A DNA stretch of 64,000 nucleotides from the NCBI GenBank assembly GCA_020725555.1, contig DYEU01000032.1:241656-305655 (forward strand). The letters run 5' to 3'. The stretch comes from Desulfatibacillum sp. GTDB taxonomy: Bacteria > Desulfobacterota > Desulfobacteria > Desulfobacterales > SpSt-501. Of the stretch, positions 21,599 through 50,739 are shown one piece after another (within the stretch, counting starts at the first letter, position 1; the number at the start of each line of letters is the position of its first letter). The notes beneath the pieces were generated by a model. It ran no database searches and was not told where the DNA came from. It was given only the letters and a program-made list of their open reading frames with translations. Made by a program: the position numbers and the translations under genes.

Positions 21599-22291
21599 AT
21601 GGCCAAAGAGCGCATCCTGGTCGTCGACGATGAGGAAGACATCGTCGAACTGGTCCGTTTTCACCTCGCCCGCGAGGGGTTCGCCGTGGAGACGGCCGCA
21701 AGCGGCGAGGAGGCCCTGAAGAAAGTCCGGCAGGGGGCCTTTGCGCTGCTCGTCCTGGACCTCATGCTCCCCGGGCTGGACGGCCTGGAGGTCGCCCGTG
21801 CCCTGAAGGCCGAAACCCGCACCGCGGGCCTTCCGATCGTCATGCTGACGGCCAAGGGCGAGGACGCCGACGTCGTGGCCGGCCTCGAGCTCGGGGCCGA
21901 CGACTACGTCACCAAGCCGTTCAGCCCGCGGGTTCTGCTCGCCCGCATCAAGGCCGTCTTGCGGCGCCGCTCGCGGGCGGCGGTCGACGACCAGAGCGTG
22001 ATCACGATCCACGATCTCGAGATCCACCCCGGGCGGCGCTCGGTCCTCGCGGGCGGAAAACCGATCGACCTCACCTTCACCGAGTTCCAGCTGCTCACGT
22101 TTTTGGCCCGCCGCCCCGGATGGGTGTTCACCCGCTCCCAGATCGTGGATGCCGTGCGCGGGACCGACTACCCCGTCACCGACCGCAGCGTCGATGTCCA
22201 GGTGGTGGGCCTGCGGAAGAAGCTCGGCCCCTACGGCCGCTACATCGAGACGGTGCGCGGGGTGGGGTACCGCTTCCGCGAGGCGCCATGA
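21599..22291 (+). CDS. phoB: OmpR-family response regulator PhoB
   Basis: REC domain (ILVVDDEEDI, LDLMLPGLDG, MLTAKG) plus winged-helix (TVRGVGYRF). Coupled to a PhoR-like kinase and surrounded by pst, phn and phoU genes. Confidence 0.9.
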   Translation: MAKERILVVDDEEDIVELVRFHLAREGFAVETAASGEEALKKVRQGAFALLVLDLMLPGLDGLEVARALKAETRTAGLPIVMLTAKGEDADVVAGLELGADDYVTKPFSPRVLLARIKAVLRRRSRAAVDDQSVITIHDLEIHPGRRSVLAGGKPIDLTFTEFQLLTFLARRPGWVFTRSQIVDAVRGTDYPVTDRSVDVQVVGLRKKLGPYGRYIETVRGVGYRFREAP

Positions 22292-24117
22292 AGCCGCCCC
22301 GCAGACTCCTCTGGCGCCTCTTTTTCTCCTATCTCTTCATCGCCCTCGGGGCGCTTTCCGTGGCGGGATGGCATTTCTCCCGCGGCCTGGAACGATTCTT
22401 CGAAGAGCAGCTCACCGCCGACCTCTTCGGCCGCGCCCGGCTGATCGAACAGGAAATCCAGCCGCTGCTCGATCCACTGCAGGCCGAGGCCGTGGACGCC
22501 GTCTGCAAGCGGCTGGGGCGCCACGCCAACACCCGCTTCAGCGTCGTACTCCCCGAGGGCAAGGTCATCGGCGACACCTGGGCGGCCCCGGATACCCTGG
22601 ACAACCACGCCGGCCGGCCGGAAATCGCCGCGGCCCTCGCCTCCGGATCCGGCCGCGCCCGGCGCTACAGCTCCACCCTGCGCCAGAACGTGCTCTATGC
22701 CGCCGTGGCCGTCGAGTCCGAGGGGCGGCGCCTCGGCGTCGTCCGGGCGGCCTTTCCGCTCTCGCACATGGAAGCCCAGATGGCGGAGATCCGCCTCGAG
22801 TTCTTCGCCGTCGGGGCCCTCGTGGCCCTGCTCGCCCTAGCCGTCACGCTGCTGATCTCCCGCCGCTACGGCCGCAAGGTCGAGGAGCTCAAGGACGGGG
22901 CGCGGCGGCTCGCCCGCGGCGAGCTCGGCCATCGTCTCCCCATCCCCGATTCCGAGGAGCTCGGCGGGCTCGCCGAGTCCCTCAACCGCATGGCCGCCGA
23001 GCTCGAGGCACGCCTGCAAACCGTGGTGCGCCAGCGAAACGAGCTCGAGGCCGTGCTCTCGAGCATGGTGGAAGGGGTCATCGCGGTCGACCCCGGGGAG
23101 CGCATCCTCAGCCTAAACCCCGCCGCCGCGCGCTGGTTCGAACTCGACGCGGAGCGGGTGCGCGGGAAAACCATCCCCGAGGCGGTCCGCAACCACGCCA
23201 TCCAGCAGTTCATCCTGCGCGCCCTGGCGACGCCCGCCGTGCTGGAAGAGGACATCACCGTCTACCGCGACGGCGAGCGCATCCTGAACATCCGGAGCAC
23301 CCCGCTGCGCGGCGCCGGGACGGAGGCGATCGGCGTCCTCATCGTCTTCAGCGACGTCACCCGCCTCAGGCGCCTCGAGGAGGTGCGCCGCGATTTCGTG
23401 GCCAACGTCTCCCACGAGATCAAGACCCCTCTCACGGCCATCCAGGGGTTCGTCGAGACGCTGCAACAGCACGGCTTCGAGAACCCGGCGGAGGCCTCGC
23501 GCTTTCTGCAGATCATCGCGCGGCACGCCGACCGCCTCAAGGCCATCGTGGACGACCTGCTTTTGCTCTCACGGATCGAAAACGAGGGCGAGCGCGGAGG
23601 GCTCAAGCTCGAGCCGGTGCGTCTGGAGCGGCTGCTGCAAAGCGCGGTGCAGATCTGTCGCCTCCCGGCCCAGGAAAAGGGGATCCCGATCACGGTGGAG
23701 GCCGACCCCTCCCTGTTCACCGCCGCCGACCCCGTGCTCCTCGAGCAGGCCGTGGTCAACCTGCTGGACAACGCGATCAAGTACAGCGACCCCGGCAAAC
23801 CCGTCGCCGTGCGCTGCCGCGCCACCGGGGGGATCGTGGCGATCGAGGTCGAGGACCGCGGCATCGGCATCGAGCGCAAACACCTGCCCCGCCTCTTCGA
23901 GCGCTTCTACCGCGCAGACAAGGCACGCAGCCGAAGCCAGGGGGGGACCGGGCTGGGCCTGGCGATCGTCAAGCACATCGCCCAGGCGCACGGGGGGCGG
24001 GTCTCCGTGGAAAGCCGGGTGGGCGAGGGAAGCCGCTTCCGCATCGAGCTGCCGCTCGGCCGGGGCGGCGAGGCGGCCCCGGCGGCTGCCGATCAGCCGA
24101 AGCGGCCGGTGATGTAA
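22288..24117 (+). CDS. phoR: Phosphate-regulon sensor histidine kinase PhoR-like (2 TM with about 170-aa outer domain, HAMP, PAS, HisKA, HATPase)
   Basis: H-box [15 protein letters not shown]-boxes DRGIGI and [16 protein letters not shown] overlap with the phoB stop. Confidence 0.85.
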
Positions 24118-24980
24118 TCCTGGGTGAGCGGGTGCCGGGGGTTGGTGAAGATCCGGTCGGTCGGGCCCACCTCGATCAGGTCCCCGAGGTGGAAGTAGGC
24201 GGTGCGCTGGGAGACCCGCGCCGCCTGCTGCATCGAGTGCGTGACGATGCAGATCGAGTACTGGGTCCGCAGCTCGAAGATCAGGTCCTCGATGACCGAG
24301 GTGGCGATGGGGTCGAGGGCCGAACAGGGCTCGTCCATCAGGATGATTTCGGGGTTGACGGCGATCGTGCGCGCGATGCACAGGCGCTGCTGCTGCCCGC
24401 CGGAGAGCCCGGTCCCGGGCTCGTGCAACCGGTCCTTCACCTCATCCCACAGGCCCGCCTTGCGCAGGGCCCTCTCGACGATCTCGTCGAGCTCGGCGCG
24501 GTTGCGCGCCAGGCCGTGGATGCGCGGGCCGTAGGCCACGTTTTCGTAGACCGACTTGGGAAAGGGGTTGGGTTTCTGGAAGACCATCCCCACTTGGGCG
24601 CGAAGCGGCACGACGTCGACCTTGCGGTCGTAGATGTTCACGCCGTCAAGCAGGATCTCGCCCGTCACCCGGCACCCCTCGATCGTGTCGTTCATGCGGT
24701 TCAGGCAGCGGATGAAGGTCGACTTGCCGCACCCCGAGGGGCCGATCATGGCGAGGACCTCGTTGCGGCCGATGTCGATCGAGACGTTGCGGATCGCCTG
24801 CTTGTCGCCGTAGAAGACGTTGACGCCGCGGCAGACCATGCGCGGGTTTTCGACCGTCACCGTGCCCACGGTCTCGCGGCTTTCGCGATCCGGCCGGCCC
24901 CTGGCCGGCTCTTCGCCGGGTGATGTTCCCAAACCGACCCCCTTCGTCATGGCCTCTTCGACCCGCGTCAGGGTGAGCAT
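24093..24980 (-). CDS. pstB: Phosphate ABC transporter ATP-binding protein PstB
   Basis: [48 protein letters not shown], and a C-terminal [10 protein letters not shown] highly characteristic of PstB. Start uncertain (24980 or 24950). The 3' end overlaps the phoR 3' end by 25 nt. Confidence 0.92.
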
Positions 24981-25035
24981 CGCCACACCGCCTTTCCTAG
25001 TAGCCGATGCCGCCGGCCCCGTAAAGACCGCAAAT

Positions 25036-25080
25036 CCGGGGCGGCTCCGCAGCGCTTCGGGCGCACGGAAACCGCCCCGG
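25036..25080 (-). other. Stem-loop between pstS and pstB (possible attenuator or mRNA-stability element)
   Basis: CCGGGGCGG (25036-25044) pairs with CCGCCCCGG (25072-25080). The 27-nt loop has an internal GCGC/GCGC pairing. Only a weak T-rich tail on the transcribed strand. Confidence 0.4.
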
Positions 25081-25096
25081 ACCCGGATTCCGGACT

Positions 25097-26149
25097 CTAT
25101 TTCGCTTCCTTCAGGACGACGAGGTTTTTCACGTTCTCGGCGACCTTCTTGCGCTCGGCCTCCGGGAGCGGGATCAGGCCCTTCTCGCTCAGGTAGCCGT
25201 CTTTGCCCCAGGCCTTCTCGCTCGTGAACTCGGCAAGGTATTCCTGGATCCCCGGGATCACGCCGACGTGCGCCTTTTTCACGTAGAAAAAGAGCGGCCG
25301 GGAGAGGGGGTACTTCCCGTCGGCGATGTTTTCGAAGCTGGGGACATGGCCGTCCACCTTGGCCCCCTGGATCTTGTCGGTGTTCTGGTCGAGGAAGCTG
25401 AAGCCGAAGATGCCCACGGCGTTCGGGTTGGCGACGAGCTTCTGCACGATCAGGTTGTCGTTTTCCCCGGCGTCCACCCAACCGCCGTCCTCGCGCAGCG
25501 AAGCAAACACCTTCTGGAACTTCTTGGCGTCCTCCTTGGAGAGCTTTTTCAGCGACTCGAAGGCGAGCGCACCGCGCTCCATGGCGAGCTCAAGAAAGGC
25601 ATCCCGCGTCCCCGAGGTGGGCGGCGGGCCGAGGACCTCGATCTTCACGTCCGGAAGCGCGGGGTTGACCTCTTTCCAGGTCTTGTAGGGGTTGGCCACC
25701 AGCGCCTCACCCCCCTTGGGGTCGGGGACCTCCTTGGCAAGCGCAAGGAAAATGTCCTTCGACGTAAACGACAGCGGGGGCGCCTTCTTCGAGTTGGCGA
25801 GCACGATCCCGTCGAAGCCGATCTTCACCTCGACGATCTCGGTCACGCCGTTTTTCTGGCAGGTCTCGAACTCGGAGGCCTTGATCGCCCGCGAGGCGTT
25901 GGAGATGTCCGGGTGCTGGACGCCGACCCCGGCGCAGAAGAGCTTGAAGCCGCCGCCCGTCCCGGTCGATTCGATCTTGGGGGTCTTGAACCCGCCCGCC
26001 TTGCCGAAACGCTCGGCCACGACCGTGGCGAAGGGATAGACGGTGGAGGAGCCGACGATGCTGATCGCATCGCGCTGCTGGGCCCGGGCCGGAATGACGG
26101 CGGCCAGGCAGAACACCAACGCCAGGGAAACAACGGTTAACCTCTTCAT
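25097..26149 (-). CDS. pstS: Phosphate ABC transporter substrate-binding protein (PstS family)
   Basis: Signal peptide [31 protein letters not shown] and SGTRDAF motifs. Confidence 0.88.
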
Positions 26150-26247
26150 GAATGCCCTCCTTTTGCATTGGGGAGAATGTGGATTCTGTCGATGACGTCG
26201 GATCTGCGGGCAACGTAAGCGCCCGGCGTGAGCCGATTGTGGGGTTT

Positions 26248-26265
26248 GGGTTTGAATTCGGTTAG
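26248..26265 (-). promoter_or_regulatory. Candidate internal Pho box upstream of pstS (two units)
   Basis: + strand GGGTTTG (26248) and CGGTTAG (26259), 11 bp apart (gene orientation CTAACCG aatt CAAACCC). About 100 bp upstream of the pstS ATG, directly after the pstA stop. Confidence 0.45.
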
Positions 26266-26269
26266 GGAC

Positions 26270-27574
26270 TCACCAACGCCGCTCGAAGCGCTTGCGCAGC
26301 CAGATCGCCCCCGCGTTCATCACCACCAGGAACGCCAGCAGGACGAGAATCGCCGCCGAGGTGCGCTCCACGAAGGCGCGCTCCGGGCTGTCCGCCCAGA
26401 GGTAGATCTGCACCGGCAGCACGGTCGCCGGGTCGGTAAAGCCCTTGGGGATTTCCACGATGAAGGCCACCATGCCGATCATGAGCAGCGGGGCGCTTTC
26501 CCCCAGGGCGCGCGCCATGCCGATGATCGTCCCGGTCAGCATGCCCGGAAGCGCCAGCGGCAGCACGTGGTGCAGAACCGTCTGCATGCGCGAGGCCCCG
26601 ACCCCCAGCGCGGCCTCGCGGATCGAGGGCGGGACGGACTTCAGCGCCGAGCGGCCGGCGATGATGATCGTGGGCAGGGTCATGAGCGTGAGCACCAGCC
26701 CGCCGACGAGCGGGGCCGAGCGCGGCAGGTGCAGGAAATTCAAAAACACGGCCAGCCCCAGCAGGCCGAAGACGATCGAGGGCACGGCCGCGAGGTTGTT
26801 GATGTTGACCTCGATCAGGTCGGTGATCCGGCCCTTGCGCGCGAACTCCTCGAGATACACCGCGGCCGCGACCCCGATGGGGAAGGAGAGCATCAGCGTG
26901 ACCGCAAGCGTGAAGAAGGAGCCGCTGACCGCCCCCCAGATCCCGGCCTGCTCGGGCTCGCGCGAGTCGCCGGCGGTGAAGAAGGTGCGGTTGAAGCGCT
27001 TCTCGAGCCGTCCCTCCGCCGCCAGGCGCTCCAGCCAGGCGAATTGGCGGTCCGAGACGCGGCGCTCGGCCTCGGGGAGATCGCGGCGGAAATGGCCCTT
27101 GACCGCCATGTCGATGTCGGCCCCGGCCTTGAGCCAGACCTCGCGCGTCTGCCCGATCACGCCGGGATCGCGCATGACGAGATCGCGGAGATCGTAGACC
27201 GCGGCGCTGCTGACGAGGGCGGCGAGCTCGCGCCGCTCCCGGCGCCCCTCGACGTCGGGGAAGAGCCGCCCCAGGCTCGCGCGGATGAGCTGGCCGTAGT
27301 CGGCCTGGGCGAGCGCCTCGGCGTGCAGGACCTCGGGGTCGAAATGGACCGGCAGCCGGATTTCCGTCTGGCGGAAGGCGCTCACGCCGTTGGCGAGGAG
27401 GCTTGCGAACATCAGGGCGAGAAACCCCAGGCTCAGAACCACCGCTGCCAGCCCAAGGAGGCGGAACCGCCGTTCGCTGCGGTAGCGCCGGGGGAGGCTC
27501 GCCCGCACGACGGCGATCGTGCGGCTGTTTTCCGGGGTTTTCCCGGCCCTCGGGTGCCCTTGCGTCTTACTCAT
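26270..27574 (-). CDS. pstA: Phosphate ABC transporter permease PstA (long form)
   Basis: EAA-type loop GMARALGESAPLLMIG. 434 aa with an N-terminal extension. Confidence 0.88.
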   Translation of the reverse strand: MSKTQGHPRAGKTPENSRTIAVVRASLPRRYRSERRFRLLGLAAVVLSLGFLALMFASLLANGVSAFRQTEIRLPVHFDPEVLHAEALAQADYGQLIRASLGRLFPDVEGRRERRELAALVSSAAVYDLRDLVMRDPGVIGQTREVWLKAGADIDMAVKGHFRRDLPEAERRVSDRQFAWLERLAAEGRLEKRFNRTFFTAGDSREPEQAGIWGAVSGSFFTLAVTLMLSFPIGVAAAVYLEEFARKGRITDLIEVNINNLAAVPSIVFGLLGLAVFLNFLHLPRSAPLVGGLVLTLMTLPTIIIAGRSALKSVPPSIREAALGVGASRMQTVLHHVLPLALPGMLTGTIIGMARALGESAPLLMIGMVAFIVEIPKGFTDPATVLPVQIYLWADSPERAFVERTSAAILVLLAFLVVMNAGAIWLRKRFERRW

Positions 27575-28955
27575 ATTGCTCCCGGTAACGGCGCACGATG
27601 TAGAGGGCGATGACGTTCAGGCAGAGGGTCACCACGAACAGCACCAGCCCCAGGGCGAAGGCGGCGAGCGTCTTGGGGCTGTCGAACTCCTGGTCGCCGA
27701 TCAGCAGGGTCACGATCTGGACGGTGACCGTGGTCACGGCCTTGAGGGGATTCACGGTGAGGTTGGCGGCAAGACCCGCCGCCATGACCACGATCATCGT
27801 CTCCCCGATGGCCCGGGAGACCGCCAGGAGGATCCCCCCCATGATCCCGGGGAGCGCGGCGGGAACGACCACGCGCCGTACGGTCTCCGAGCGGGTCGCC
27901 CCCAGGCTGTAGGCGCCGTCCCGCAGCGACTGGGGGACGGCGTTGATGAAATCGTCGGAGAGCGAGCAGACGAAGGGGATGATCATGATCCCCATGACGA
28001 CGCCGGCGGCAAGGGCGCTCTCCGAGGCGACATCGAGCCCGAGCAGGCCGCCTGCGTCGCGGACGAAGGGGGCGACGGTCAGGGCGGCGAAAAAGCCGTA
28101 CACCACGGTGGGGATGCCGGCGAGAATCTCGATCAGCGGCTTGGCGACCGCGCGGAAGCTCTTTCCGGCATACTCCGAGAGATAGATGGCCGACATCAGC
28201 CCGATCGGGACCGCGACCACCATGGCGATGGCGGAGATGAGGGCCGTCCCCAGAAAGACGGGGACGGCGCCGAAGGCACCCGAGGCCCCCACCTGGTCGG
28301 CGCGGATCGCCATCTGCGGGCTCCAGGAGAGGCCGAAGAGAAACTCCCCGACGGGGATGATGCGGAAAAAGAGAACCGCCTCGTAGACCACGGAAAGGAC
28401 GATGCCGACGGTGGTGAAAACGGCGATCGTGGAGCAGGCGACGAGCATGGCGGTCAAAATGCCCTCGACGTGGTTGCGCGCCCGGAGCGTCGGCCGCAGG
28501 CGGCGGCGCACGAGGAGGGCCATGGCGGCGGCCAGGGAGAGCGTCACCACGGCGAGCGCCTGGCGGCTCAGGCCGAGAAGCCGCCGGTAGGTCGCCGCGG
28601 CCTCCCGCACCGCCGGATCCGCTGCCGTCTCCTCGAAACGCCCGCCGGCGACATTGCGGATGTCGTTCACGATCAGGCTGAGCCGGTCCCCGGGCAGGCT
28701 GCGCTGGGGCTCGGGGAGGCCCTCGACGACGATCCGGGTGATCACCTGGGATTCAAAGGCAAGCCAGAGGGCAAACAGCAAGATCGCCGGCAGGGCGCAC
28801 CACAGAGCGACCAGGGCGCCGTGATAATTCGGCCGGGAGTGCAACCTCTGCGCCCGGCCGCCTGCGCCGGCCAGGGCGAAAGCCCGGCGCCGGCCGAGGT
28901 GGTAGGCCGCCGCGGAAAAGGCGAGCAGCACGGCAAGCAGGACAAACGGAGGCAT
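27567..28955 (-). CDS. pstC: Phosphate ABC transporter permease PstC (long form)
   Basis: SRAIGETMIVVMAAG loop typical of PstC. 462 aa with an about 150-aa N-terminal extension. 8-nt overlap with pstA. Confidence 0.88.
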   Translation of the reverse strand: MPPFVLLAVLLAFSAAAYHLGRRRAFALAGAGGRAQRLHSRPNYHGALVALWCALPAILLFALWLAFESQVITRIVVEGLPEPQRSLPGDRLSLIVNDIRNVAGGRFEETAADPAVREAAATYRRLLGLSRQALAVVTLSLAAAMALLVRRRLRPTLRARNHVEGILTAMLVACSTIAVFTTVGIVLSVVYEAVLFFRIIPVGEFLFGLSWSPQMAIRADQVGASGAFGAVPVFLGTALISAIAMVVAVPIGLMSAIYLSEYAGKSFRAVAKPLIEILAGIPTVVYGFFAALTVAPFVRDAGGLLGLDVASESALAAGVVMGIMIIPFVCSLSDDFINAVPQSLRDGAYSLGATRSETVRRVVVPAALPGIMGGILLAVSRAIGETMIVVMAAGLAANLTVNPLKAVTTVTVQIVTLLIGDQEFDSPKTLAAFALGLVLFVVTLCLNVIALYIVRRYREQYE

Positions 28956-29025: not shown

Positions 29026-29065
29026 TGGTTAGGTTTCGGTTAGACTTCGGTTAACATCTCGTTAG
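29026..29065 (-). promoter_or_regulatory. Pho box array upstream of pstC (four units at exact 11-bp phase)
   Basis: + strand TGGTTAG (29026), CGGTTAG (29037), CGGTTAA (29048) and TCGTTAG (29059). Gene orientation CTAACGA/TTAACCG/CTAACCG/CTAACCA. 71-110 bp upstream of the pstC ATG. Confidence 0.7.
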
Positions 29066-29070
29066 ACCGC

Positions 29071-29358
29071 TCATTCGTAAAAGAGCTCCGGCGAGACGGC
29101 CAAGAATTGGGCCTGCCGCGAAAGAAGCGCCACCCGCGGCAGGGCCTCCTGGGGGGAGTTGCGGGTGGCGGCGAACGCGAGCTCCGCCGCCAGGCGGCGG
29201 ACGTAGTCGACCCGCTTGACGCAATGCATGCAGGTGTCGTTGTTCTTGTCGGCGTCGTGAAGAAGGCAACTGCGGCAGGGGCTGGTCATGGGTTCCATCC
29301 TTTTCACAGCGTGCGGTTTTTGGATCGATCCGCCGCGGCCGCGGCGGATCACGACCAC
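29071..29358 (-). CDS. Hypothetical small Cys4 (zinc-ribbon-like) protein
   Basis: SPCRSCLLHDADKNNDTCMHCVKRVDY (CxxC-N13-CxxC). Natural composition, unlike the overlapping frames. The true start is probably an internal Met (29298 or 29289). Confidence 0.45.
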   Translation of the reverse strand: MVVIRRGRGGSIQKPHAVKRMEPMTSPCRSCLLHDADKNNDTCMHCVKRVDYVRRLAAELAFAATRNSPQEALPRVALLSRQAQFLAVSPELFYE

Positions 29359-29406
29359 CCTGACGCCCGGGCGTTGCCCCGCGATGAGGAGCAGGTGAGA
29401 ATCGCG

Positions 29407-29424
29407 CTAACCCGGGCCTGCTCC
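29407..29424 (+). promoter_or_regulatory. Candidate Pho box (distal) upstream of the RPH-like gene
   Basis: CTAACCC (29407) and CTGCTCC (29418), 11 bp apart. Confidence 0.4.
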
Positions 29425-29461
29425 GGAACGACACCGCCCTCGGGGGCTCCGCTTGCTCGGG

Positions 29462-29490
29462 CTCATCGAATTCTAACCCGCCTGTGCCAT
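29462..29490 (+). promoter_or_regulatory. Candidate Pho box (proximal) upstream of the RPH-like gene
   Basis: CTCATCG (29462), CTAACCC (29473) and GTGCCAT (29484) at 11-bp phase. 58-86 bp upstream of the ATG at 29548. Confidence 0.5.
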
Positions 29491-29547
29491 CCGTTCGCTG
29501 GCCGGCACAGGGCTTCCGCCTATCCCACCCGAGGATGAGGATCCGTC

Positions 29548-31920
29548 ATGGGCGACATCGTCCGCATCGAAGACCCCGAGGCCATCGACGAAACCCGGGT
29601 CGGCCGCAAGTTCGCCGCCCTGGCTCGAGCCTCGCGCCTGGGCATCGCCGTGCCCGAGGCCGTGGCCGTCGGCACGCGGGCCCACGCCTCCTGGCGCAGC
29701 TCCGGCGCATGGCCCGAGGGGTTGAAGGAGGAGGTCCTCGCGGCAGCGGAGCGGCTGGGATGGGACGCGGGCCTTGCGGTCCGATCCTCGGCCGTCAAGG
29801 AGGATCTCGCCGGCTGCAGCTTTGCCGGGCAATACCGCAGCTTTCTCCAAGTCTCCACGCCGGAGGAGCTTTTCCGCCGCGTGGAAGATTGCTGGGATAG
29901 CGCCGCCTCGGAAACAGTGCGTGCCTACCTCGCGGCGCTCGCCGTCGAGGGGGCGGAAGCGGAAGCCCCGCTTCTCGCCGTGGTGCTGCAGCGCATGGTC
30001 CCGGCCGCCTGGTCGGGGGTGGCCTTCAGCCGTGACCCGCGGGCGCCGCAGCGCTCGGAGGCGCTCTGGATCGAGGCCGTGGCGGGAACGGCGGAATCGC
30101 TGGTTTCGGGCCTCGCGATCCCCTGGCGGGTCCGGATCGCCCGCCGGCCGGGAGCGCGGCCCGAAGCGGACGCCGGAAGCGCCCGCCGGATGCCGCCGGC
30201 TCTCCCCTGGAAGGCGGTCGCCGGCCTGCTCCTCACTCTGGAACAACGGCTGGGGGAAAACGGCCTGGACATCGAGTGGGCGGTCGACCGCGACGGCATC
30301 CTCTGGCTCCTCCAGCTCCGACCCATCACCGCGGCCGCAGCCGTCCCCGAGGACCTTCCGCCCCCCGGAATCTGGACGCGACGGCTGGCCGAGGATCTCT
30401 GGGGCGACCGGATCGAGCCGTTTTTCGCCGATGTCCTGCTGCGGCATGCGCCGCGTTTCGATCTCTCCCGCATTCTGACCCGCCTGGGCATCCCCCCGGT
30501 GCGGCCGTCGCTCGCCGTCATCGCCGGTTACCTCTACCTGAACGCCGGGGCCCTCTCCCGGATGGCGGCACAGCTTCCGCGGCGCTGGCGCCCCGCCGAG
30601 CTCGAAGGCCTTCTTCCGCCCGGGGCGAGGCCGGAGGCGACGCCGGCCCCGCCCTTTCCGCGACGGGGTGAGCTTTTGCTGCGGCTGCTCGCCCTGCCGT
30701 TTCGCGAGCCGCAATGCCTGCCGGGCATCTGCCTGCGGCGGGCGGCACGCACCGTCGCCGCCCTCGGCGAGCGCATCGCCGAGAGCCTCAGGCTTCCCGG
30801 GGGGACGGCCGCGGAGCGCCTCGCAGCACTTGCCTTCGACCTCGAAACCCTCGCCCGGATCCAGGAGAACAACCAGTGGCCTTACTTCCACGCCGCCGCC
30901 CTGCTCGCGGCTCTCCGCGAGGCGGCAGCCCGCCGGGGCCTGCCGGGAGAGGATGTGCTGCGGCTGATCGGCCGCAAGGCCGACAACGTGACGATCCGGA
31001 TCGAGGCCTGGTTCCGCGAGACGGCCGCACGCATCCGCAGCCGGCCGGAACTGGCGCACCGCTTTGCCTCAGCCCCGGCGGGAAGCGATCTGCGGCGCAT
31101 CCTGCCGCCGGACCTGGACCGGGAGCTCGAGCGGTTCCTCGCCGCCTGGGGCGCACGCGCCCGGCACCGCTCGCTCCTTGTGCCGCGCTGGGCCGAAGCC
31201 CCGGAGGAGGTCTTGAGAATTCTTCAGGCGCTGGTCCGCAACCCCGCCCCCGCCCGGTCGGCCGGGGGCGGAGAGGTCCTCGCCCCGCCGCTTCTTCTCC
31301 GGTGGCTCTCCCGCCGGGTGACCCGGTTTCTCGACCTGCGGGAGGAGCTGCGCTTTCTCCTCGACCGGGCGCTCTACCGCATCCGGATCGATCTTCTGGC
31401 GTTGGGGCGGCTGCTCGGAGCGGGGGAAGAGATCTTTTACCTCAGGCTCGAGGAGATCGAGGCGCTCGCGCTGGGCGCACTTGCCCTCCCGGAGGCCCTT
31501 TCCCGGGCCGGAAGGCGCAAGCGGCGTTTCGCGACAGCGCCCGATCCGAGCCCCTTCTGGATCGACGGCCGGCCCCACCACGAGCTGACCACCGCGCACC
31601 GCATCCTGCGGGGCATCGGGGCGAGCCCGGGGACGGCGACCGGGCGGGCCGTTCTGGTGACCGACCCGGCGGATCCCTCGGTGCGCCGCGGCGACATTCT
31701 CGTGGCGCGGCACACCGACCCCGGGTGGACGCCGGTCTTCAGCATCGCGGGGGGGGTCGTCACCGAGGAGGGCGGGCTCCTGAATCACTGTGCGATCGTG
31801 GCCCGCGAGCTGGGCATCCCCACCGTCGTCGGGGTTCGGGGGGCGATGCGCCTTGTGCCGCAGGGCTCGCGGATCACCGTGGACGGCAGCTCGGGGACGA
31901 TCCTGATTCCGCCGGAATGA
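29548..31920 (+). CDS. PEP-synthase-family phosphotransferase with rifampicin-phosphotransferase-like architecture (ATP-grasp, helical middle domain, C-terminal swivel His domain)
   Basis: N-terminal VGRKFAALA...SSAVKEDLAGCSFAGQY...DIEWAVDRDGILWLLQLRP. Middle GIWTRRLAEDLWGD. C-terminal GIGASPGTATGRAV...GGLLNHCAIVARELGIPTVVG. Confidence 0.85.
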   Translation: MGDIVRIEDPEAIDETRVGRKFAALARASRLGIAVPEAVAVGTRAHASWRSSGAWPEGLKEEVLAAAERLGWDAGLAVRSSAVKEDLAGCSFAGQYRSFLQVSTPEELFRRVEDCWDSAASETVRAYLAALAVEGAEAEAPLLAVVLQRMVPAAWSGVAFSRDPRAPQRSEALWIEAVAGTAESLVSGLAIPWRVRIARRPGARPEADAGSARRMPPALPWKAVAGLLLTLEQRLGENGLDIEWAVDRDGILWLLQLRPITAAAAVPEDLPPPGIWTRRLAEDLWGDRIEPFFADVLLRHAPRFDLSRILTRLGIPPVRPSLAVIAGYLYLNAGALSRMAAQLPRRWRPAELEGLLPPGARPEATPAPPFPRRGELLLRLLALPFREPQCLPGICLRRAARTVAALGERIAESLRLPGGTAAERLAALAFDLETLARIQENNQWPYFHAAALLAALREAAARRGLPGEDVLRLIGRKADNVTIRIEAWFRETAARIRSRPELAHRFASAPAGSDLRRILPPDLDRELERFLAAWGARARHRSLLVPRWAEAPEEVLRILQALVRNPAPARSAGGGEVLAPPLLLRWLSRRVTRFLDLREELRFLLDRALYRIRIDLLALGRLLGAGEEIFYLRLEEIEALALGALALPEALSRAGRRKRRFATAPDPSPFWIDGRPHHELTTAHRILRGIGASPGTATGRAVLVTDPADPSVRRGDILVARHTDPGWTPVFSIAGGVVTEEGGLLNHCAIVARELGIPTVVGVRGAMRLVPQGSRITVDGSSGTILIPPE

Positions 31921-32995
31921 GCGGCCGGGCGGACCGCCTGCCGCCCGCCGGCACCGCCTCGACCGGAAAGAGGGTCTCCTCCCAGCAGCGGCGCGCCAGG
32001 TCCGCCGGATCTTCCCACGAGCAGCCTGCGATCCAGCGGGCGATGTGCGCGGCCACGTCGGGGTAGCGGACGCGGACGCCGCCGGGGCGCCGCAGAAAGG
32101 CCTCCACCGCCCTTCCGTCCAGCCGGTTCATCACCTCCCCCAGGCCGAGCAGGGTGAGCGCCCGCGCGTTGGAGAGCTGCTCCATCTGACCGCCTAGCGG
32201 CTTGACGAGGATCTTCTTGCCGAGCTGCAGCGCCTCGCTGGCGAGCTCGAAGCCGGCATTGGTGATCACCCCGGCGCTCTCGGCGAGCGCCCGGAGAAAG
32301 CCGGCGCGGCGGAGCGGACGCCAGCGGAGATGCCCCTCGTCGACGGGGCGCTCAAGATGATGATGGATACGAAATTCCCACCCGGAAAAGGGGGCGAGGA
32401 GCCGGCGGATGTCCTCGATCTCCTCAAAGGGCAGGTAGACAAGAATGCATCTCTCGCGCACCAGACCGCCGGCCGGCAGCTCCGGCACCACGGGGGGAAG
32501 GATCGGCTGGCCGAAGGAATGCCAGTGCAGGCCCAGGCGGTGGCGGGCCGGGGCGAACCGCCGCAGGACGAACCAGGCGAAGGGGTCGAAGCCGGCGACG
32601 GGGATGCGGTAGTGGAAGGCGTACTGGTGGCCGATGCCGATCGCGGGCAGGCGGTGGCGGAGCGCGATGCGCGCGGTGATGGGCTCGAAGTCGGTGATCA
32701 CCAGATCCACGCCGCGGGCGTCCTCGAGGCGGATGTCGCGGTAGAAACGGGCGAGGTTCAACCCGGCGAGCGTCCGGAACGGCTGGAGCCTTCCCCGGCG
32801 CGTGGCGAAGGTGAGCCCGGGCAACACCCGGTAGGGCTCGAAGGCCTCCATGTCCCAGAGGCGCTCGGCGGGGCGGCCGCTCACGATCACGCGCACCTCG
32901 TGCCCGTCCTGCTTGAGGCGGCGGACGATTTCCCGCGAGCGGCTGAGATGGCCGTTGCCCGTTCCCTGGACGCCGTAGAGGATGCGCAAACCCAT
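31874..32995 (-). CDS. MJ1255/VC2487-family (GT28/MurG-like fold) glycosyltransferase
   Basis: N-terminal ILYGVQGTGNGHLSRSREI motif characteristic of this family. 373 aa. The 3' end overlaps the convergent RPH-like gene by 47 nt. Confidence 0.75.
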   Translation of the reverse strand: MGLRILYGVQGTGNGHLSRSREIVRRLKQDGHEVRVIVSGRPAERLWDMEAFEPYRVLPGLTFATRRGRLQPFRTLAGLNLARFYRDIRLEDARGVDLVITDFEPITARIALRHRLPAIGIGHQYAFHYRIPVAGFDPFAWFVLRRFAPARHRLGLHWHSFGQPILPPVVPELPAGGLVRERCILVYLPFEEIEDIRRLLAPFSGWEFRIHHHLERPVDEGHLRWRPLRRAGFLRALAESAGVITNAGFELASEALQLGKKILVKPLGGQMEQLSNARALTLLGLGEVMNRLDGRAVEAFLRRPGGVRVRYPDVAAHIARWIAGCSWEDPADLARRCWEETLFPVEAVPAGGRRSARPLIPAESGSSPSCRPR

Positions 32996-32998
32996 CGA

Positions 32999-33526
32999 TC
33001 ATCCCACGGCGCGGATGCCGCAGGCGGCGCTCAGGATGCCGAGGAGCATCCCCGCCAGGACATCGCTGGGGAAATGAACCCCTAAATAGACGCGGGAGAC
33101 GCCCACGGCGGCGGCCCAGAGACCCGCCGCGGGGAGGAGCGGCGGGCAGGCCTCCGCAAGGAGGGTCGCCGCCACGAAGGCGGCGGCCGTGTGGCCGGAA
33201 GGGAAGCTGAAGCGGTCGGAGGGCCTCCGGCGGCAGGCGATGCCGGCGACGACTTCGAAGGGCCGGCTGCGCCGGACCGCCTGTTTGATGAGCCGGTAGG
33301 CGGCGAGCTCCACGGCGAAGGCGATGCTCCCCGCCAGAAGGAAGAAGCGGCCGGCGGGCGGATCCAGCAACCACAGCAGGATCGCCAGCAGCGGATAGGC
33401 CGGGCCGTCGCCGCTCGCGGAGATGCGGCGCAACCCGCGGGCGATCCACCGCCGGTCGTCCAGGCAAAATATTGCCGCCACGCCGCGGGCGTCCCAGCGC
33501 ACCAAACGATCGACAAGCGCCTGCAT
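32999..33526 (-). CDS. PAP2-family phosphatase (phosphatidic-acid / lipid phosphate phosphatase type)
   Basis: KxxxxxxRP (IKQAVRRSRP), PSGH (FPSGHTAAAF) and SRxxxxxHxxxD (SRVYLGVHFPSD) signature motifs. ATG at 33526 chosen inside the artefactual long ORF. Confidence 0.85.
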   Translation of the reverse strand: MQALVDRLVRWDARGVAAIFCLDDRRWIARGLRRISASGDGPAYPLLAILLWLLDPPAGRFFLLAGSIAFAVELAAYRLIKQAVRRSRPFEVVAGIACRRRPSDRFSFPSGHTAAAFVAATLLAEACPPLLPAAGLWAAAVGVSRVYLGVHFPSDVLAGMLLGILSAACGIRAVG

Positions 33527-33582
33527 GGTGTCAGGATGGCGGTTTCCTGTTTCGATCGCGTGAGGAAGACGTGCGTTTTCGG

Positions 33583-34776
33583 TTACAGCCCGGTGGCGAT
33601 CACGAGGTCCGTGATCGGGCCGCGGGACTTCTCCCCCTTGAGCACGAGGTGCGCGTAGATGCGGCTTCCCCTGAACTTCTTGACCAACCAGTTCAGGCCG
33701 TTGTTCTCGGGGCTGAGGTAGGGCGGGTCCACCTGGCGGGTGTCTCCCAGGCAGAAGCATTTCACCCCTTCGCCCATGCGGGAGAGCAGGGTGCGGCACT
33801 CCTGGCGCGAGAGGTTCTGCATTTCGTCGATGATGACGACCGCCTGTTCCAGGTTCATGCCGCGGATGAAATTGAGCGGGAGAATTTCGAAGAGCCGGGG
33901 GTTGAACAGCGGCGGGTTCGTCTCCGCGTCCTGAAACAGCTTGTTCGCCGGGCGCAGGCGGTGGAGCTTGAGCACCAGGTCGGAGACGGCGCGCGTGTAG
34001 GGCTCCATTTTTTCGTCGAGCCTCCCCGGCAGGTAGCCCAGCTTCTGGCCGATTTCGACGGTGGGCTTGACCACGTAGATTTTCTCGTGGCTCTTGCGCT
34101 CCAAGACGAGCGTCAAGGCGCAGGCGAGCGCCAGAAAGCTCTTGCCGTAGCCCGCTTCGCTCTGGATCGAAACCACCAGAAGCTCCGGGTTCATCATCAG
34201 CTCGATCGCCAGGTTCTGGTAGACGTTGCGCGGGGTGACCTTCCAGGCCCGGTGCAGGTAGTCGATCGTCTTCTCCCCTTCGGCGCCGACAAAGACCGGC
34301 TTTCCCTGCTCGTTCCAGAAGAAGCTGTTCACCGGGGCCCGGGCGCGGTCGGGGGCAAAGCCGGTAAAATGCTCGGCCTCGGAGCGGAAGGGGACGGACT
34401 CGCGGTAAATTTCGCTCGGGATGCCGTTCAGCCGGGCCTCGAGCTGCAGCATGCGGTCGTTGGTCACGAGAATCGGCCGCTCGAGGCGGCTTGCCCGGAT
34501 CTCCTCGAGGATGAATCGGTCCACGCGGTCGGCGAAGCGGGCGGCGACGCCGGCGGTTTCGAGGACCTGGAAGGCATCCGGGTCCGCCATGAGCTGGTCC
34601 ACCACGCGGCCGACGACATGGCGGTGCCGGGGGTGCTTGCGAAGATGGTTCAGCTCGAGGAGGACGTGGTGCGGAATGAAAATGCGGTTCTGGTTTCCGT
34701 TGCGCAGCTTGAGGAGGCATTGCGGGTCTTCGAGCAAGACGTTGGTGTCGACAACATACTCCTTGGCTTCATTCAT
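33583..34776 (-). CDS. phoH: PhoH-family ATPase with N-terminal PIN domain (YlaK-like)
   Basis: PIN start YVVDTNVLLEDP. P-loop SIQSEAGYGKSFLA. PhoH core VVIIDEMQNL. ATG at 34776 has a GGAGGA RBS 9 nt upstream (track start 34785 is a TTG). Confidence 0.85.
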   Translation of the reverse strand: MNEAKEYVVDTNVLLEDPQCLLKLRNGNQNRIFIPHHVLLELNHLRKHPRHRHVVGRVVDQLMADPDAFQVLETAGVAARFADRVDRFILEEIRASRLERPILVTNDRMLQLEARLNGIPSEIYRESVPFRSEAEHFTGFAPDRARAPVNSFFWNEQGKPVFVGAEGEKTIDYLHRAWKVTPRNVYQNLAIELMMNPELLVVSIQSEAGYGKSFLALACALTLVLERKSHEKIYVVKPTVEIGQKLGYLPGRLDEKMEPYTRAVSDLVLKLHRLRPANKLFQDAETNPPLFNPRLFEILPLNFIRGMNLEQAVVIIDEMQNLSRQECRTLLSRMGEGVKCFCLGDTRQVDPPYLSPENNGLNWLVKKFRGSRIYAHLVLKGEKSRGPITDLVIATGL

Positions 34777-34922
34777 GCGCGGCAATCCTCCGCTGGGGTT
34801 TGGGAAAGCCGAAACTGCTGCGGCTGGCGGCGGCCGGGCGGCGCCGCAGGCCTGCGGGGCGGCAGGAACAGAGCGGATCGGGGGGAGAAGAAAGGGAAAC
34901 CCTGTCGGCCATGGAAACGGGG

Positions 34923-36773
34923 TCAGATCCCTCCCTGGGCGGCCCGCCGTACCGGCCGGCGCCGCCCCGCGGCCTCATCCTCGGCCCGCACGCGGGCCTC
35001 GAGCCGGATTTTTTCCGCCGGCACCCCTTTCTCTATCAGCTCGCGGGCGACCCCCGGCGAGGGGACGTAGACCGTGCGCACATGGCCGTAGAACCAAGCG
35101 AGGTATTTCCAGGCGAGGTCCTCGATGAAGGTGTCGTGCGTGAGCTGGCGCGCCAGGCGGGGAATCGCCTCGCTGTGGGTCGCCTCCAGCGGCAGGCCGA
35201 GGAAGCGGCCGATGAAGAGCCCGGCAAGACCGGTCGGCCCGGAACCCGCCAGGTGAAGACGCTCGATCGGCTGCGAAAAACAGAAATCGAGCATCTCCAG
35301 GAGCGGGGGGTAGACCAGCCGTTCCCCCGGGAGCTCCTCGAAGGCATAGACGCCAATCGGTGCAAAGCGCCGGACCGCCCCGCCTTCCGTGTCCGCTTCG
35401 CAGGTGAGCACCACCCGCTCCGCTTCCTCCCGGCCCCCGGCGGCGGCCAGCCCCTGAGCGGCGTTTTCGGCGAAGACGGCGCAGCGCAAGGGCCGCGCCG
35501 CGGCGCCCTGCGCGCCCAGCTGCCCCGCCGCCTCGCGGGCCAGGCGGATCTGGGCGTTGTGGTGGGCGAAGCCCACGAAGTAGGGGGCGAGCAGGGTGCA
35601 GAACCCGCCGGCGGAGCCGATCGTGTGAAAGATGCTGAAGAGATTCGCCCCCGAGAGGTGGTCAAGCAGGTGGTTGGCGAAGCCGAGCAAAATGCGGCTC
35701 GACATCTTGTGAATGAAGTCGAACCAGCGTTCGGCCGACGGCTGCGGCACCTGCTTCGCCCTGCGCGGGAGAGCGAAGAGTTCCGGCTCATCGCGGATCA
35801 GGCGCGCCGTTTCCTTGCGCAGGAGATCGACCAGGGGCCCCGGCAGGCTGCCCCGGATCCGGCGCAAGCGGCGGGCCTGCCAGAGAAAGTGCAACCGGGA
35901 GAGTATCCCGCCCTCTTCTTCCTCCGGCGTCCCGCGCAGGCTGCGATCCACGAACCGCAGCAGAAAATCGTGCGGCACCTGGGCACCGAGATCGAGCCGG
36001 GCGCGATAGAACTGGTAGGCGATGCTGTAGAGGTTGTGGGCGAGATGCTTCGGCGAGGAGGGCTCCTCGATCACCTGCGCCGCCCCCGCCTCGATCCCCG
36101 CGAAGAACTCCGCCGCCGACCGGGCGCCCTCGACCCGGGTGAAGGTGCGGCCGATGGTGAGGGAGCTGTGATCATCGGAGCCGCCGATCAGCCGCTTGAC
36201 CCAAGGGAGGGGGCCGACGGGGGCGATCCCGTGCCGGTCCGCAAGCTGCCCAAGCGCCTGCGGGGTCAGTGCCGCGAGCATCTCGCGCAGGCGGCGGTTC
36301 GCCTCGGGGTGGCTGTCGCCGTTGATTTCGAAGACCGAAAACAGCAGCAACAGTTTCTCGATGTGCGCGGGGGTCAGCCGGTCGTTGACCGCGTAAAACG
36401 GATGGGCCGCGGCGTGAAACACCCCTTCCTGCCGCAGGTAGCCGAGAAGCTCGTAGAGGTTCGGGCGCAGTTTCTGGATCTCGGCGTGTTGGGCTTCGCT
36501 GATGCGGTAGACGAGGACATGCACCTTGCAGCCGTCCTCCGGCAAATAGCTCGTCACCTCCTCGCCGATCACGACGCCGGGGAGGTGCGCGATCTCGAGC
36601 GCCCCCTCGATGCGGTTGTGATCGGTGACCGTCACCAGATCCATGCCGCGACGGCGGGCGAGGTGATAGAGCCGGAGGGGTTCGGTAAAGCTCTCGGGAC
36701 AGCCGATCTTCTGCAGCAGCCACTGGGAGGGCCGCTGCGAGTGCCGTGAGTGCACATGCAGGTCCGCTTGCAT
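34923..36773 (-). CDS. Fusion protein: N-terminal PHP-domain metallophosphoesterase, helical linker, and a GT4-type glycosyltransferase N-terminal half only
   Basis: PHP motifs ADLHVHSRHS, DLVTVTDHN and GGSDDHS. The C-terminal part aligns by eye to the SqdX/GT4 N-domain (IERLHLAGSGPTGLAGL..., LEATHSE, VYVPSPGVARELIEKGVPAEKIRL) but ends where the nucleotide-sugar-binding C-domain should start. ATG at 36773 chosen. Confidence 0.7.
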   Translation of the reverse strand: MQADLHVHSRHSQRPSQWLLQKIGCPESFTEPLRLYHLARRRGMDLVTVTDHNRIEGALEIAHLPGVVIGEEVTSYLPEDGCKVHVLVYRISEAQHAEIQKLRPNLYELLGYLRQEGVFHAAAHPFYAVNDRLTPAHIEKLLLLFSVFEINGDSHPEANRRLREMLAALTPQALGQLADRHGIAPVGPLPWVKRLIGGSDDHSSLTIGRTFTRVEGARSAAEFFAGIEAGAAQVIEEPSSPKHLAHNLYSIAYQFYRARLDLGAQVPHDFLLRFVDRSLRGTPEEEEGGILSRLHFLWQARRLRRIRGSLPGPLVDLLRKETARLIRDEPELFALPRRAKQVPQPSAERWFDFIHKMSSRILLGFANHLLDHLSGANLFSIFHTIGSAGGFCTLLAPYFVGFAHHNAQIRLAREAAGQLGAQGAAARPLRCAVFAENAAQGLAAAGGREEAERVVLTCEADTEGGAVRRFAPIGVYAFEELPGERLVYPPLLEMLDFCFSQPIERLHLAGSGPTGLAGLFIGRFLGLPLEATHSEAIPRLARQLTHDTFIEDLAWKYLAWFYGHVRTVYVPSPGVARELIEKGVPAEKIRLEARVRAEDEAAGRRRPVRRAAQGGI

Positions 36774-36827
36774 ACGCTCCTTTCCGCATCGCGTCGCCAC
36801 GCGTTTGCCCATCATTCAACCCCGTGC

Positions 36828-36856
36828 GGGTTAGCCGGCGATTACGCAACCGCTAA
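36828..36856 (-). promoter_or_regulatory. Candidate Pho box upstream of the PHP-fusion/phoH/PAP2/GT operon
   Basis: + strand GGGTTAG (36828), CGATTAC (36839) and CCGCTAA (36850) at 11-bp phase. 55-83 bp upstream of the ATG at 36773. It would sit only 13 bp from the track start at 36815, which supports the shorter ORF. Confidence 0.5.
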
Positions 36857-37726: not shown

Positions 37727-37766
37727 CAAACCAAAAATTCGCATCTCTTTAGCAAAACCCTAAGAC
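37727..37766 (+). promoter_or_regulatory. Weaker 11-bp-phased array oriented toward the OlsF-like gene
   Basis: CAAACCA (37727), TTCGCAT (37738), TTAGCAA (37749) and CTAAGAC (37760). The last unit is 54 bp upstream of the ATG at 37820. Confidence 0.3.
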
Positions 37767-48815: not shown

Positions 48816-48816
48816 G

Positions 48817-50520: not shown

Positions 50521-50553
50521 GTCCTGCCTTCCGCGGGGCATCCTGAAACGGCA

Positions 50554-50593
50554 GGATTAGGCGCCGATGAGGCTGGGGTTAAAATACGGCAAA
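50554..50593 (-). promoter_or_regulatory. Pho box array upstream of the C-P lyase operon (four units)
   Basis: + strand GGATTAG (50554), CGATGAG (50565), GGGTTAA (50576) and CGGCAAA (50587) at exact 11-bp phase. 34-73 bp upstream of the ATG at 50520. Confidence 0.6.
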
Positions 50594-50686: not shown

Positions 50687-50739
50687 GATAGCGTCCGCCG
50701 AGGGGCGAACGAGCGACCGCAACGAGGGGAACCCGGTGC

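Follow-up and report, generated by a model that had tools for sequence, protein, structure and literature searches.

In several characterised members of the superfamily of dikinases that resemble rifampin phosphotransferase (RPH), such as PigC and phenylphosphate synthase, phosphate serves as a transient activating group that is released again. The ability to renovate lipids when phosphorus is scarce is a major trait among environmental bacteria, and its described routes rely on phospholipase C, glycosyltransferases and aminolipid synthases; we know of no dikinase in any described lipid-renovation pathway. Here we analysed a stretch of 64,000 nucleotides from Desulfatibacillum sp. (assembly GCA_020725555.1, contig DYEU01000032.1, positions 241,656 to 305,655 of the forward strand; hereafter the window) that carries a gene for an RPH-like dikinase. 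A note made earlier from the letters alone (the original prediction) had proposed that this gene encodes an RPH-type enzyme controlled by a Pho box. By comparing the gene, its promoter region and its neighbours with those of relatives, we arrived at the reading, to which we give a probability of about 0.6, that the product is a soluble three-domain RPH-like dikinase of the Pho regulon, tied to the synthesis of phosphorus-free lipids.

RPH of Listeria monocytogenes (RPH-Lm; PDB 5FBS and 5HV1) holds the transferred rifampin phosphate with Arg666, Glu667 and Lys670, which also position His825 (Stogios et al., PMC4844700). The window protein shares with RPH-Lm the order of ATP-grasp domain, helical acceptor domain and C-terminal His swivel domain, a full-length structural match, the ATP-site lysine, the catalytic histidine and an R/E/(K or R) phosphate block, as well as a hydrophobic residue instead of threonine at the position of the regulatory threonine of pyruvate phosphate dikinase (PPDK). 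However, its N-terminus is shorter by about 50 residues, sequence alignment fails over the first half of its acceptor domain, and its gene lies in a phosphate-starvation and lipid context instead of one of antibiotic resistance. PigC, HapC and RedH have the same architecture and presumably the same phospho-His chemistry, but PigC is encoded within a secondary-metabolite operon, whereas the dikinase gene stands alone with its own putative Pho box in a pst/phn/lipid neighbourhood, and the window holds no prodiginine cluster. PpsAB (phenylphosphate synthase), CreHI and HpeHI are built of homologous ATP-grasp and swivel-plus-acceptor modules, and for such phenolic dikinases a stoichiometry of ATP to AMP plus inorganic phosphate (Pi) and a dependence on the histidine have been demonstrated (PMC12167813). 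In contrast to them, the window's dikinase is a single polypeptide with putative Pho-type regulation and without aromatic-catabolism genes nearby. Phosphoenolpyruvate (PEP) synthase (PpsA) and PPDK also have homologous ATP-grasp and swivel domains, but the TIM barrel that binds PEP or pyruvate is missing from our protein, and the His domain, central in PpsA and PPDK, is C-terminal.

On the physiological side, the closest described systems are the PlcP/Agt lipid renovation pathways of SAR11, rhizobia and Desulfovibrio alaskensis G20, which our locus resembles by having glycosyltransferases and an OlsF-like synthase nearby (PMC5193443). It differs from them by its phosphoesterase, a PHP-like protein that carries a fused GT4-like domain and is not a calcineurin-type PlcP. 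The text of the G20 lipid study by Bosak et al. (PMC5193443) mentions no dikinase. When we searched the literature for enzymes resembling RPH or PEP synthase that are linked to lipid remodelling or to a Pho regulon, nothing relevant turned up, the only precedent being the pigA promoter of Serratia, which PhoB activates when Pi is low (PMC2695467). The original prediction knew of no described Pho-regulon member of this family, and our searches agree with it apart from this loose precedent. The operon driven by the pigA promoter presumably contains the family member pigC, in which case the superfamily already has a member under Pho control.

The dikinase gene occupies 29548-31920 (plus strand, stop codon included) and encodes 790 amino acids (aa). 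Its frame has a GC content at third codon positions of 0.86, typical of coding sequence in a window of about 69% GC, the N-terminus of the translated protein aligns with those of its orthologues from residue 1, and we regard it as a real gene. Pfam recognised PPDK_N (ATP-grasp; PF01326, E 1e-35), with its best stretch at residues 52-198, and the PEP-utilizers swivel domain (PF00391, E 7e-25) at residues 713-783, and found no PEP/pyruvate-binding TIM-barrel domain in the 790-aa protein. The ATP-grasp nucleotide-binding domain spans about residues 1-262 (29548-30333) and aligns to residues 87-318 of RPH-Lm. It is followed by a helical acceptor-binding domain at about residues 274-668 (30367-31551), which starts at the motif GIWTRRLAEDLWGD (residues 274-287) and is homologous to the rifampin-binding domain of RPH by a profile alignment to residues 506-760 of RPH-Lm. 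In all orthologues, precomputed Pfam annotation places Rph_4th (PF27448) between the two terminal domains. The C-terminal phosphohistidine swivel domain (31552-31917) carries the predicted catalytic H747 (codon 31786-31788) within GGLLNHCAIVARELGIP, fewer than about 50 residues from the C-terminus, as the positional rule for the catalytic histidine states (PMC12167813).

Structure prediction pointed in the same direction. An AlphaFold2 model, for which 70 homologues were used as input, had a mean predicted local distance difference test score of 87.5 and a predicted template modelling score of 0.71, and was almost wholly helical from about residue 281 to residue 663. When this model was searched against the PDB with Foldseek, the six top matches were all RPH-Lm entries and all full-length, with 5hv1 ranking first (E 5e-35, about 22% structural-alignment identity), while PEP synthase and PPDK matched only over the terminal domains. 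The Listeria enzyme was also the best solved relative by sequence (E 5e-41 in a single-sequence search and E 9e-87 with the family profile). Hence, the RPH-type domain order, the helical middle domain (of about 390 residues by our count, about 380 in the original prediction) and both motifs quoted in the original prediction were confirmed.

We then looked at the residues expected to carry out catalysis. K21 aligns with K22 of RPH, the ATP-binding lysine, and belongs to a set of invariant ATP-grasp columns that also includes R79-S80-S81, E85-D86, D241/E243 and Q256/R258. H747 aligns to H825 of RPH-Lm and is invariant in the homologue alignment. In the acceptor domain, the profile alignment brings R598, E599 and R602 onto R666, E667 and K670 of RPH-Lm; the first two never vary among 70 sequences, and conservation of the third is at least 90%. 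The codons of R598-E599-E600-L601-R602 (31339-31353, plus strand) thus mark the predicted phosphate-handling block of the acceptor site. Where PPDK has its regulatory threonine, our protein has a leucine. With phmmer, a weak alignment (5 bits) places Q337 of RPH (block-1 Gln, Q336/Q337) opposite the invariant D283, in the first half of the acceptor domain that the profile leaves unaligned. Since the ATP-site lysine, the catalytic histidine and the R/E/R block are all kept, the catalytic apparatus of a phospho-His dikinase is, as judged from these alignments, intact in the 790-aa protein.

The RPH-type assignment was judged against curated NCBIfam cut-offs, and all the scores fell far below them. 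The protein scored 198 bits with the RPH model NF041857 (cut-off 999) and 154 bits with the RPH model NF000283 (cut-off 1700), 220 bits with PigC (cut-off 1300), 198 bits with RedH (cut-off 1350), 176 bits with the PEP synthase model TIGR01418 (cut-off 740) and 62 bits with TIGR01828 (cut-off 843). We therefore rejected an assignment to RPH in the strict sense, the structural-alignment identity of about 22% to RPH-Lm being also far from the >42% found within the validated RPH clade (clade A; PMC4844700). For the same reason we rejected PpsA or PPDK, whose PEP-binding domain is missing, and PigC or RedH, given that the gene is surrounded by pst, glycosyltransferase, PAP2 and PhoH2 genes. With scores so far below the cut-offs of RPH, PigC/RedH and PEP synthase, sequence comparison places the protein in a separate clade, new and defined by its context, within the known RPH-like superfamily of small-molecule dikinases.

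This orthologous group comprises about 80 database clusters at 40% or more full-length identity, after which identities fall to 35% or less, and nearly all its members come from Desulfobacterales-type metagenome-assembled genomes (MAGs). The comparison drew on the 120 best database matches and on 80 loci that were kept. An exact look-up of the window protein in the assembly index gave no match, and the 91%-identical relative P0001 served in its place. In a neighbour-joining tree without support values, the sequences with a pst or glycosyltransferase neighbourhood fell mostly within one large clade. A sister clade at 37-40% identity (L015, L022, L023, L028, L037, L043 and L047) consists of tandem or inverted paralogues located beside a 620-aa PpsA/HpeH-like PEP-utilizers (swivel) protein, or of genes whose context is not recognisable; these proteins may be aromatic-compound dikinases of Desulfatiglandales-type genomes. 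More distant archaeal homologues (26-31% identity, MAG loci L072-L078) consistently have a gene for a DUF7065/DUF7064 protein next downstream.

To define the Pho box of this lineage, we relied on the pst promoters. Upstream of pstC in the window, four units (CTAACG / TTAACC / CTAACC / CTAACC) are arrayed with an exact 11-bp period (29027-29065, minus strand), and a four-unit CTAAC array of the same period, with the consensus CTAACA, precedes pstC in all 19 sequences compared (the window and 18 related loci). The repeat resembles the box that DAP-chip experiments yielded for PhoB in Desulfovibrio vulgaris, a direct repeat of (c/t)GT(n)AC (PMC3333781). Because of the conservation of the pst array, its placement before Pho genes and its likeness to the D. 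vulgaris box, we treat the CTAAC repeat with an 11-bp period as the putative local Pho box, defined for the lineage by sequence comparison. CTAACC as such is not over-represented, with eight copies in the whole window for 6.2 expected, so that position, orientation and a matrix built outside this genome are the informative measures. All eight copies fall between 26260 and 37673, and the seven that could be assigned, among them one of the two boxes at 37646 and 37668, are intergenic and read toward the downstream gene. We derived a position weight matrix (PWM) solely from the pst promoters of other genomes, with the window left out, and scanned the window with it. Nine two-unit sites reached 10 bits, for 2.3 +/- 1.5 expected, and eight of them precede pstC, the dikinase gene, the olsF-like gene (37738-37765), phnC (39921) or the phn operon (50566).

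The site preceding the dikinase gene is the direct repeat CTCATCG-AATT-CTAACC (CTCATCGAATTCTAACC) at 29462-29478 on the plus strand, 70-86 nt before the ATG, which scored 10.5 bits with the leave-window-out PWM. Its second half is the unit at 29473, and a weak third unit may follow. Most relatives with a pst or glycosyltransferase neighbourhood have a YTAAC-N6-CTAAC repeat scoring about 10 bits or higher at a distance of 64-128 nt from the start codon, the exceptions being L014, L018, L025, L032, L042, L056 and L060. The position and orientation of the box are kept before orthologues at 41-65% protein identity, although the flanking intergenic DNA has diverged, and an alignment of eleven intergenic regions left two conserved islands only, the dikinase repeat and a minus-strand pair at 29383-29399. 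In contrast, most loci without a pst or glycosyltransferase neighbourhood lack the box, and none of them reached 10 bits between -260 and -20 (the best, L043, had 9.0 bits). A scan for sigma-70 consensus sequences between 28900 and 29600 found no promoter, which is expected for PhoB-dependent promoters and hence uninformative. Together, these comparisons support a control of the dikinase gene by the Pho box, as originally predicted, with a motif of the pstC type that is shared with the olsF-like, phnC and phn promoters and conserved before orthologues.

The original prediction had counted two arrays with CTAACCC units, at 29407 and 29473. Exact CTAACC(C) matches do exist at both positions, but only the unit at 29473 belongs to an array. 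The one at 29407-29413 (plus strand) is alone, since the next unit at an 11-bp step is poor. It is kept only in the 91%-identical relative L079, others having CTACGCC or ATGCCCC at this place, and it is probably fortuitous and without function.

Next, we compared the gene neighbourhoods. In L079, the closest relative with gene calls, an MGDG-synthase-like gene is followed by phoB, phoR, pstB-S-A-C, a small open reading frame (ORF) and the dikinase gene, beyond which lie a convergent gene for a Glyco_trans_1_3 glycosyltransferase, PAP2, PIN-PhoH2 and a gene for a GT4-containing 630-aa protein, and then LysE, an OlsF-like acyltransferase and phnCD. The gene order of the window is the same. Among the 57 loci with at least 1.5 kb of downstream sequence, the gene for the MJ1255-family glycosyltransferase is adjacent to and convergent with the dikinase gene in 26. 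Across the related loci, PAP2 was found in 25, PhoH2 in 19 and the PHP/GT4 fusion in 18. pstC or pstA is divergent from the dikinase gene in 18 of the 50 loci with enough upstream sequence. A different arrangement was seen in L018, L025, L026, L035 and L038, where the dikinase gene directly follows a same-strand gene for a 339-aa GT4 glycosyltransferase (c27), the two overlapping at the dikinase start or being at most about 80 nt apart, and Pho-box dimers are located 90-140 nt before the start of the GT4 gene. Each such pair is thus an apparent operon behind a Pho box. GT4 and dikinase genes are also paired in L034, L044 and L071. The repeated adjacency to glycosyltransferases of two families strengthens the link to lipid head-group chemistry that the original prediction had suggested.

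In the window itself, the dikinase gene faces a convergent operon on the minus strand (31874-36815). This operon encodes a glycosyltransferase of the MJ1255/VC2487 family (Glyco_trans_1_3; 31874-32995; Pfam and NCBIfam), a 175-aa PAP2 phosphatase (32999-33526), a 400-aa PIN-PhoH2 protein (33583-34785) and a 630-aa fusion of a PHP-like metallohydrolase with GT4 (34923-36815), which is preceded by a Pho-box-like site of 9.3 bits (36829-36845). The PAP2 and PIN-PhoH (PhoH2) genes lie in different frames and appear as one long ORF, a 573-aa 'PAP2', in the mechanical ORF list. Upstream, also on the minus strand (24093-28955), are pstC (27567-28955), pstA (26270-27574), pstS (25097-26149) and pstB (24093-24983), among which PstC, PstA and PstB pass the Pfam/NCBIfam cut-offs and PstS is of the PstS family. 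The gene was said to sit between pstC and the lipid operon, and we indeed found pstC upstream and the glycosyltransferase/PAP2 operon downstream, with the qualification that a 72-aa ORF intervenes before pstC. On the plus strand, about 5 kb from the dikinase gene (21599-24117), a phoB-like response regulator gene (21599-22291) and a phoR/pnpS-like histidine kinase gene (22285-24117) were identified by their best NCBIfam matches, both just under the cut-off (241 bits for 296 with PhoB, 397 for 400 with PnpS/PhoR). Beyond the convergent operon, a gene at 37820-39694 (plus strand), with Pho-box-like sites at 37738-37765, encodes an OlsF-like bifunctional aminolipid acyltransferase with the Pfam domains Acyltransf_2 and Acetyltransf_5 and an NCBIfam OlsF score of 379 bits (cut-off 620). 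NCBIfam also confirmed PstB, PhnC/D/E and PhoU in the window.

Searches of the PDB by sequence gave no matches for the MJ1255-family glycosyltransferase and the PHP/GT4 fusion, and for the GT4 partner they returned generic small-molecule GT4 enzymes only. The partner enzymes therefore do not reveal the acceptor. In the 630-aa fusion, a PHP/CehA-like metallohydrolase region at the N-terminus is combined with a GT4 N-domain (residues 449-604), and no C-terminal Glycos_transf_1 domain was detected, an unusual architecture if this protein is the equivalent of PlcP/Agt.

Based on these observations and on homology, we propose the following mechanism. The ATP-grasp domain would bind ATP, and H747 on the swivel domain would accept its beta-phosphate, with the gamma-phosphate leaving as Pi and AMP being released. 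By analogy with RPH (PMC4844700) and the phenolic dikinases (PMC12167813), the swivel domain would then ferry the phosphate to the helical middle domain, where R598, E599 and R602 would position it for transfer to an acceptor hydroxyl (or an enol or carbonyl oxygen). This acceptor would be neither rifampicin nor pyruvate. Transcription would start from a PhoB-type promoter, with the direct repeat at 29462-29478 standing in for the -35 region, so that phosphate scarcity would bring about synthesis of the enzyme alongside that of Pst, Phn, PhoH2, the OlsF-like aminolipid synthase and the glycosyltransferases nearby. Since the gene persistently adjoins glycosyltransferases of two families, and since an MGDG-synthase-like gene, an OlsF-like gene, PAP2 and a PHP-like phosphoesterase are among its neighbours, the acceptor is most likely an intermediate in the synthesis of phosphorus-free membrane lipids or glycolipids. 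The phosphate would probably be a transient activating or handle group, removed by the neighbouring PAP2 or in a substitution step. With PAP2 encoded next door, such a transient phosphate would cost ATP without a net cost of phosphorus. The original prediction had found it counter-intuitive that a phosphate-consuming enzyme should be induced by phosphate starvation, but this objection is weak given that the phospho-intermediates of the relatives are transient. More tentatively, and as a reading that we consider rather unlikely, the dikinase could be the missing head-group- or lipid-activating enzyme of starvation lipid renovation in Desulfobacterales-type sulfate reducers, acting with a partner glycosyltransferase and possibly PAP2 to make a phosphorus-free membrane lipid by a route undescribed in any organism.

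Several observations weigh against the proposed role in lipid synthesis under Pho control. The box before the window's dikinase gene is only moderate, with 10.5 bits and a degenerate first unit (CTCATC), and the empirical p-values of the box per locus range from 0.004 to 0.09, values that are inflated because the background flanks are themselves full of Pho boxes. Four relatives with a glycosyltransferase neighbourhood (L018, L025, L042 and L056) have no box within 260 nt; in L018 and L025 it sits before the upstream GT4 gene, and in L056 the intergenic region carries an insertion. For about half of the family loci the context is different or unrecognisable, and the tree has no support values. 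As the MJ1255-family glycosyltransferase gene is convergent, it does not form one operon with the dikinase gene, and the two might share a Pho island simply because they are regulated together. Finally, the known substrates of the superfamily are aromatic or polyketide small molecules, and we know of no lipid or sugar acceptor described for it.

A rival explanation is an enzyme that is Pho-regulated but unrelated to lipids, which would phosphorylate a soluble or diffusible small molecule for trapping, scavenging or a low-phosphate metabolic bypass, the adjacency to glycosyltransferases being a mere clustering of Pho genes. The neighbourhood does include Pho genes without a link to lipids (pst, phnCDE, PhoH2 and PhoU), the MJ1255-family glycosyltransferase lies on the opposite strand, the sister clade adjoins a PpsA/HpeH-like protein, and phenolics are the substrates of the two-component relatives HpeHI, CreHI and PpsAB, for which a scavenging role has been proposed (PMC12167813). 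However, two unrelated glycosyltransferase families are linked to the dikinase in two arrangements, one of them an overlapping same-strand GT4-dikinase pair, and the GT4 link survives beyond the clade that has the pst or glycosyltransferase neighbourhood, namely in L034 and L044; we thus consider this explanation serious but unlikely. It is less likely still that the protein is an activating enzyme of the PigC kind and not a net kinase, in which a nucleophile would displace the phosphate from a phosphorylated carbonyl, enol or hydroxyl oxygen to give an unusual phosphorus-free head group or lipid linkage. Such a reaction would have no net phosphorus cost and would, in our view, suit a starvation regulon, and PigC, HapC and RedH, which have the same architecture, employ it for a condensation (PMC13534948). 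Moreover, phosphate limitation leads Desulfatibacillum alkenivorans to form novel head groups, found in glucuronosyl lipids and butyramide-cysteine glycerolipids, whose biosynthetic enzymes are unknown (PMC11181052). Against this, the scores with PigC (220 bits for 1300) and RedH (198 bits for 1350) are low, the cluster shows no evident partner enzyme for a condensation, and no D. alkenivorans protein is among the 120 best database matches or the 80 kept loci, although the pattern-based scan could miss one. The sole known maker of these lipids therefore probably lacks an orthologue, and we dropped the tie to the butyramide-cysteine lipids as unsupported.

Two further explanations appear much weaker. 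A phosphotransferase that inactivates rifamycin or another antibiotic or xenobiotic, with an incidental proximity to pst, would fit with RPH-Lm being the best match among solved structures and with the name 'rifampicin phosphotransferase' given to homologues in some records of the Joint Genome Institute (JGI), and glycosyltransferases too can inactivate rifamycins. This is highly improbable in view of an NCBIfam RPH score of 198 bits for 999, an identity to RPH-Lm of about 22% (more than 42% within its validated clade), and a gene position and a Pho box that hold across many genomes; the possibility raised at the outset that the protein is simply a rifamycin kinase is thus not borne out. We give even less credence to the reverse, nucleotide-forming reaction that the original prediction had also considered, in which phosphate would be recovered at low Pi from a phosphorylated metabolite or lipid by making ATP from AMP plus Pi or pyrophosphate. 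It agrees with the logic of scavenging, and PPDK runs in the ATP-forming direction in some organisms (PMC5371819). Yet the PEP/pyruvate-binding C-terminal domain is missing, and forming ATP from AMP demands a PEP-like donor, lipid-derived phosphoesters being far too weak as inferred from standard free energies of hydrolysis. On these grounds, energetics and the missing domain, the reverse direction was rejected.

Returning to the lipid-linked Pho dikinase, we consider both its Pho regulation and its connection to lipid renovation well motivated by the comparisons, and the enzyme is probably an unrecognised step of the low-phosphate membrane response. Sulfate reducers respond to low phosphate with unexpected lipids free of phosphorus, made by enzymes yet to be assigned (PMC11181052), and with a conserved putative Pho box and beside glycosyltransferases, the dikinase is a concrete and testable candidate for such a step. 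If the proposal is true, the RPH/PigC superfamily would gain its first acceptor that is a lipid or glycoconjugate. The large and mostly uncharacterised RPH-like family, in which mis-annotation as PEP synthase or rifampicin phosphotransferase is frequent, would also gain a physiological role beyond antibiotic resistance, pigment synthesis and aromatic catabolism.

Other features of the locus deserve mention. The window contains a large run of Pho-regulon genes between 20209 and 51396, with the MGDG-synthase-like gene, phoBR, pst, the glycosyltransferase genes, the olsF-like gene, phnCDE and phoU (50692-51396). The order pstC-A-S-B is unusual. The 120-nt gap between pstA and pstS holds a CTAACCGAATTCAAACC repeat (26249-26265, minus strand), whose PWM score is below 8 bits owing to an A in the second unit, and which suggests an internal Pho promoter for pstS-pstB. 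A 10.3-bit Pho-box-like dimer at 36156-36172 (minus strand) within the PHP/GT4 coding sequence is either due to chance or an intragenic PhoB site as reported in E. coli. Pho-box-like sites also occur at 50555-50582, and the minus-strand cluster at 44033-50556 opens with a gene for a phn-associated hexapeptide transferase, the only gene of it that we checked; the cluster probably contains carbon-phosphorus lyase genes. In two relatives, the intergenic region between pstC and the dikinase gene is swollen to 1.2-1.3 kb by a repeat-like insert (L056 8698-10001; L016 1628-2854), which in L056 shifts the Pho box away from the start codon.

The small ORF between pstC and the dikinase gene (29071-29289, minus strand) encodes a 72-aa Cys-rich protein (CxxC...CxxC) and is the divergent partner of the dikinase transcription unit. 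It is called as a gene in L079 and L080, and had no match in Pfam and NCBIfam searches. By tblastn we found it in 22 loci, including some without an adjacent pst operon, and in every case it directly precedes the dikinase gene or the GT4-dikinase unit in divergent orientation. The second conserved intergenic island, a Pho-box-like pair CTCACCTGCTCCTCATC at 29383-29399 on the minus strand (ATGAG-N6-RTGAGAA on the plus strand), reads toward this ORF, and AT-rich relatives carry CTAAT units at the equivalent position. The small Cys-rich protein may be a partner or a regulator.

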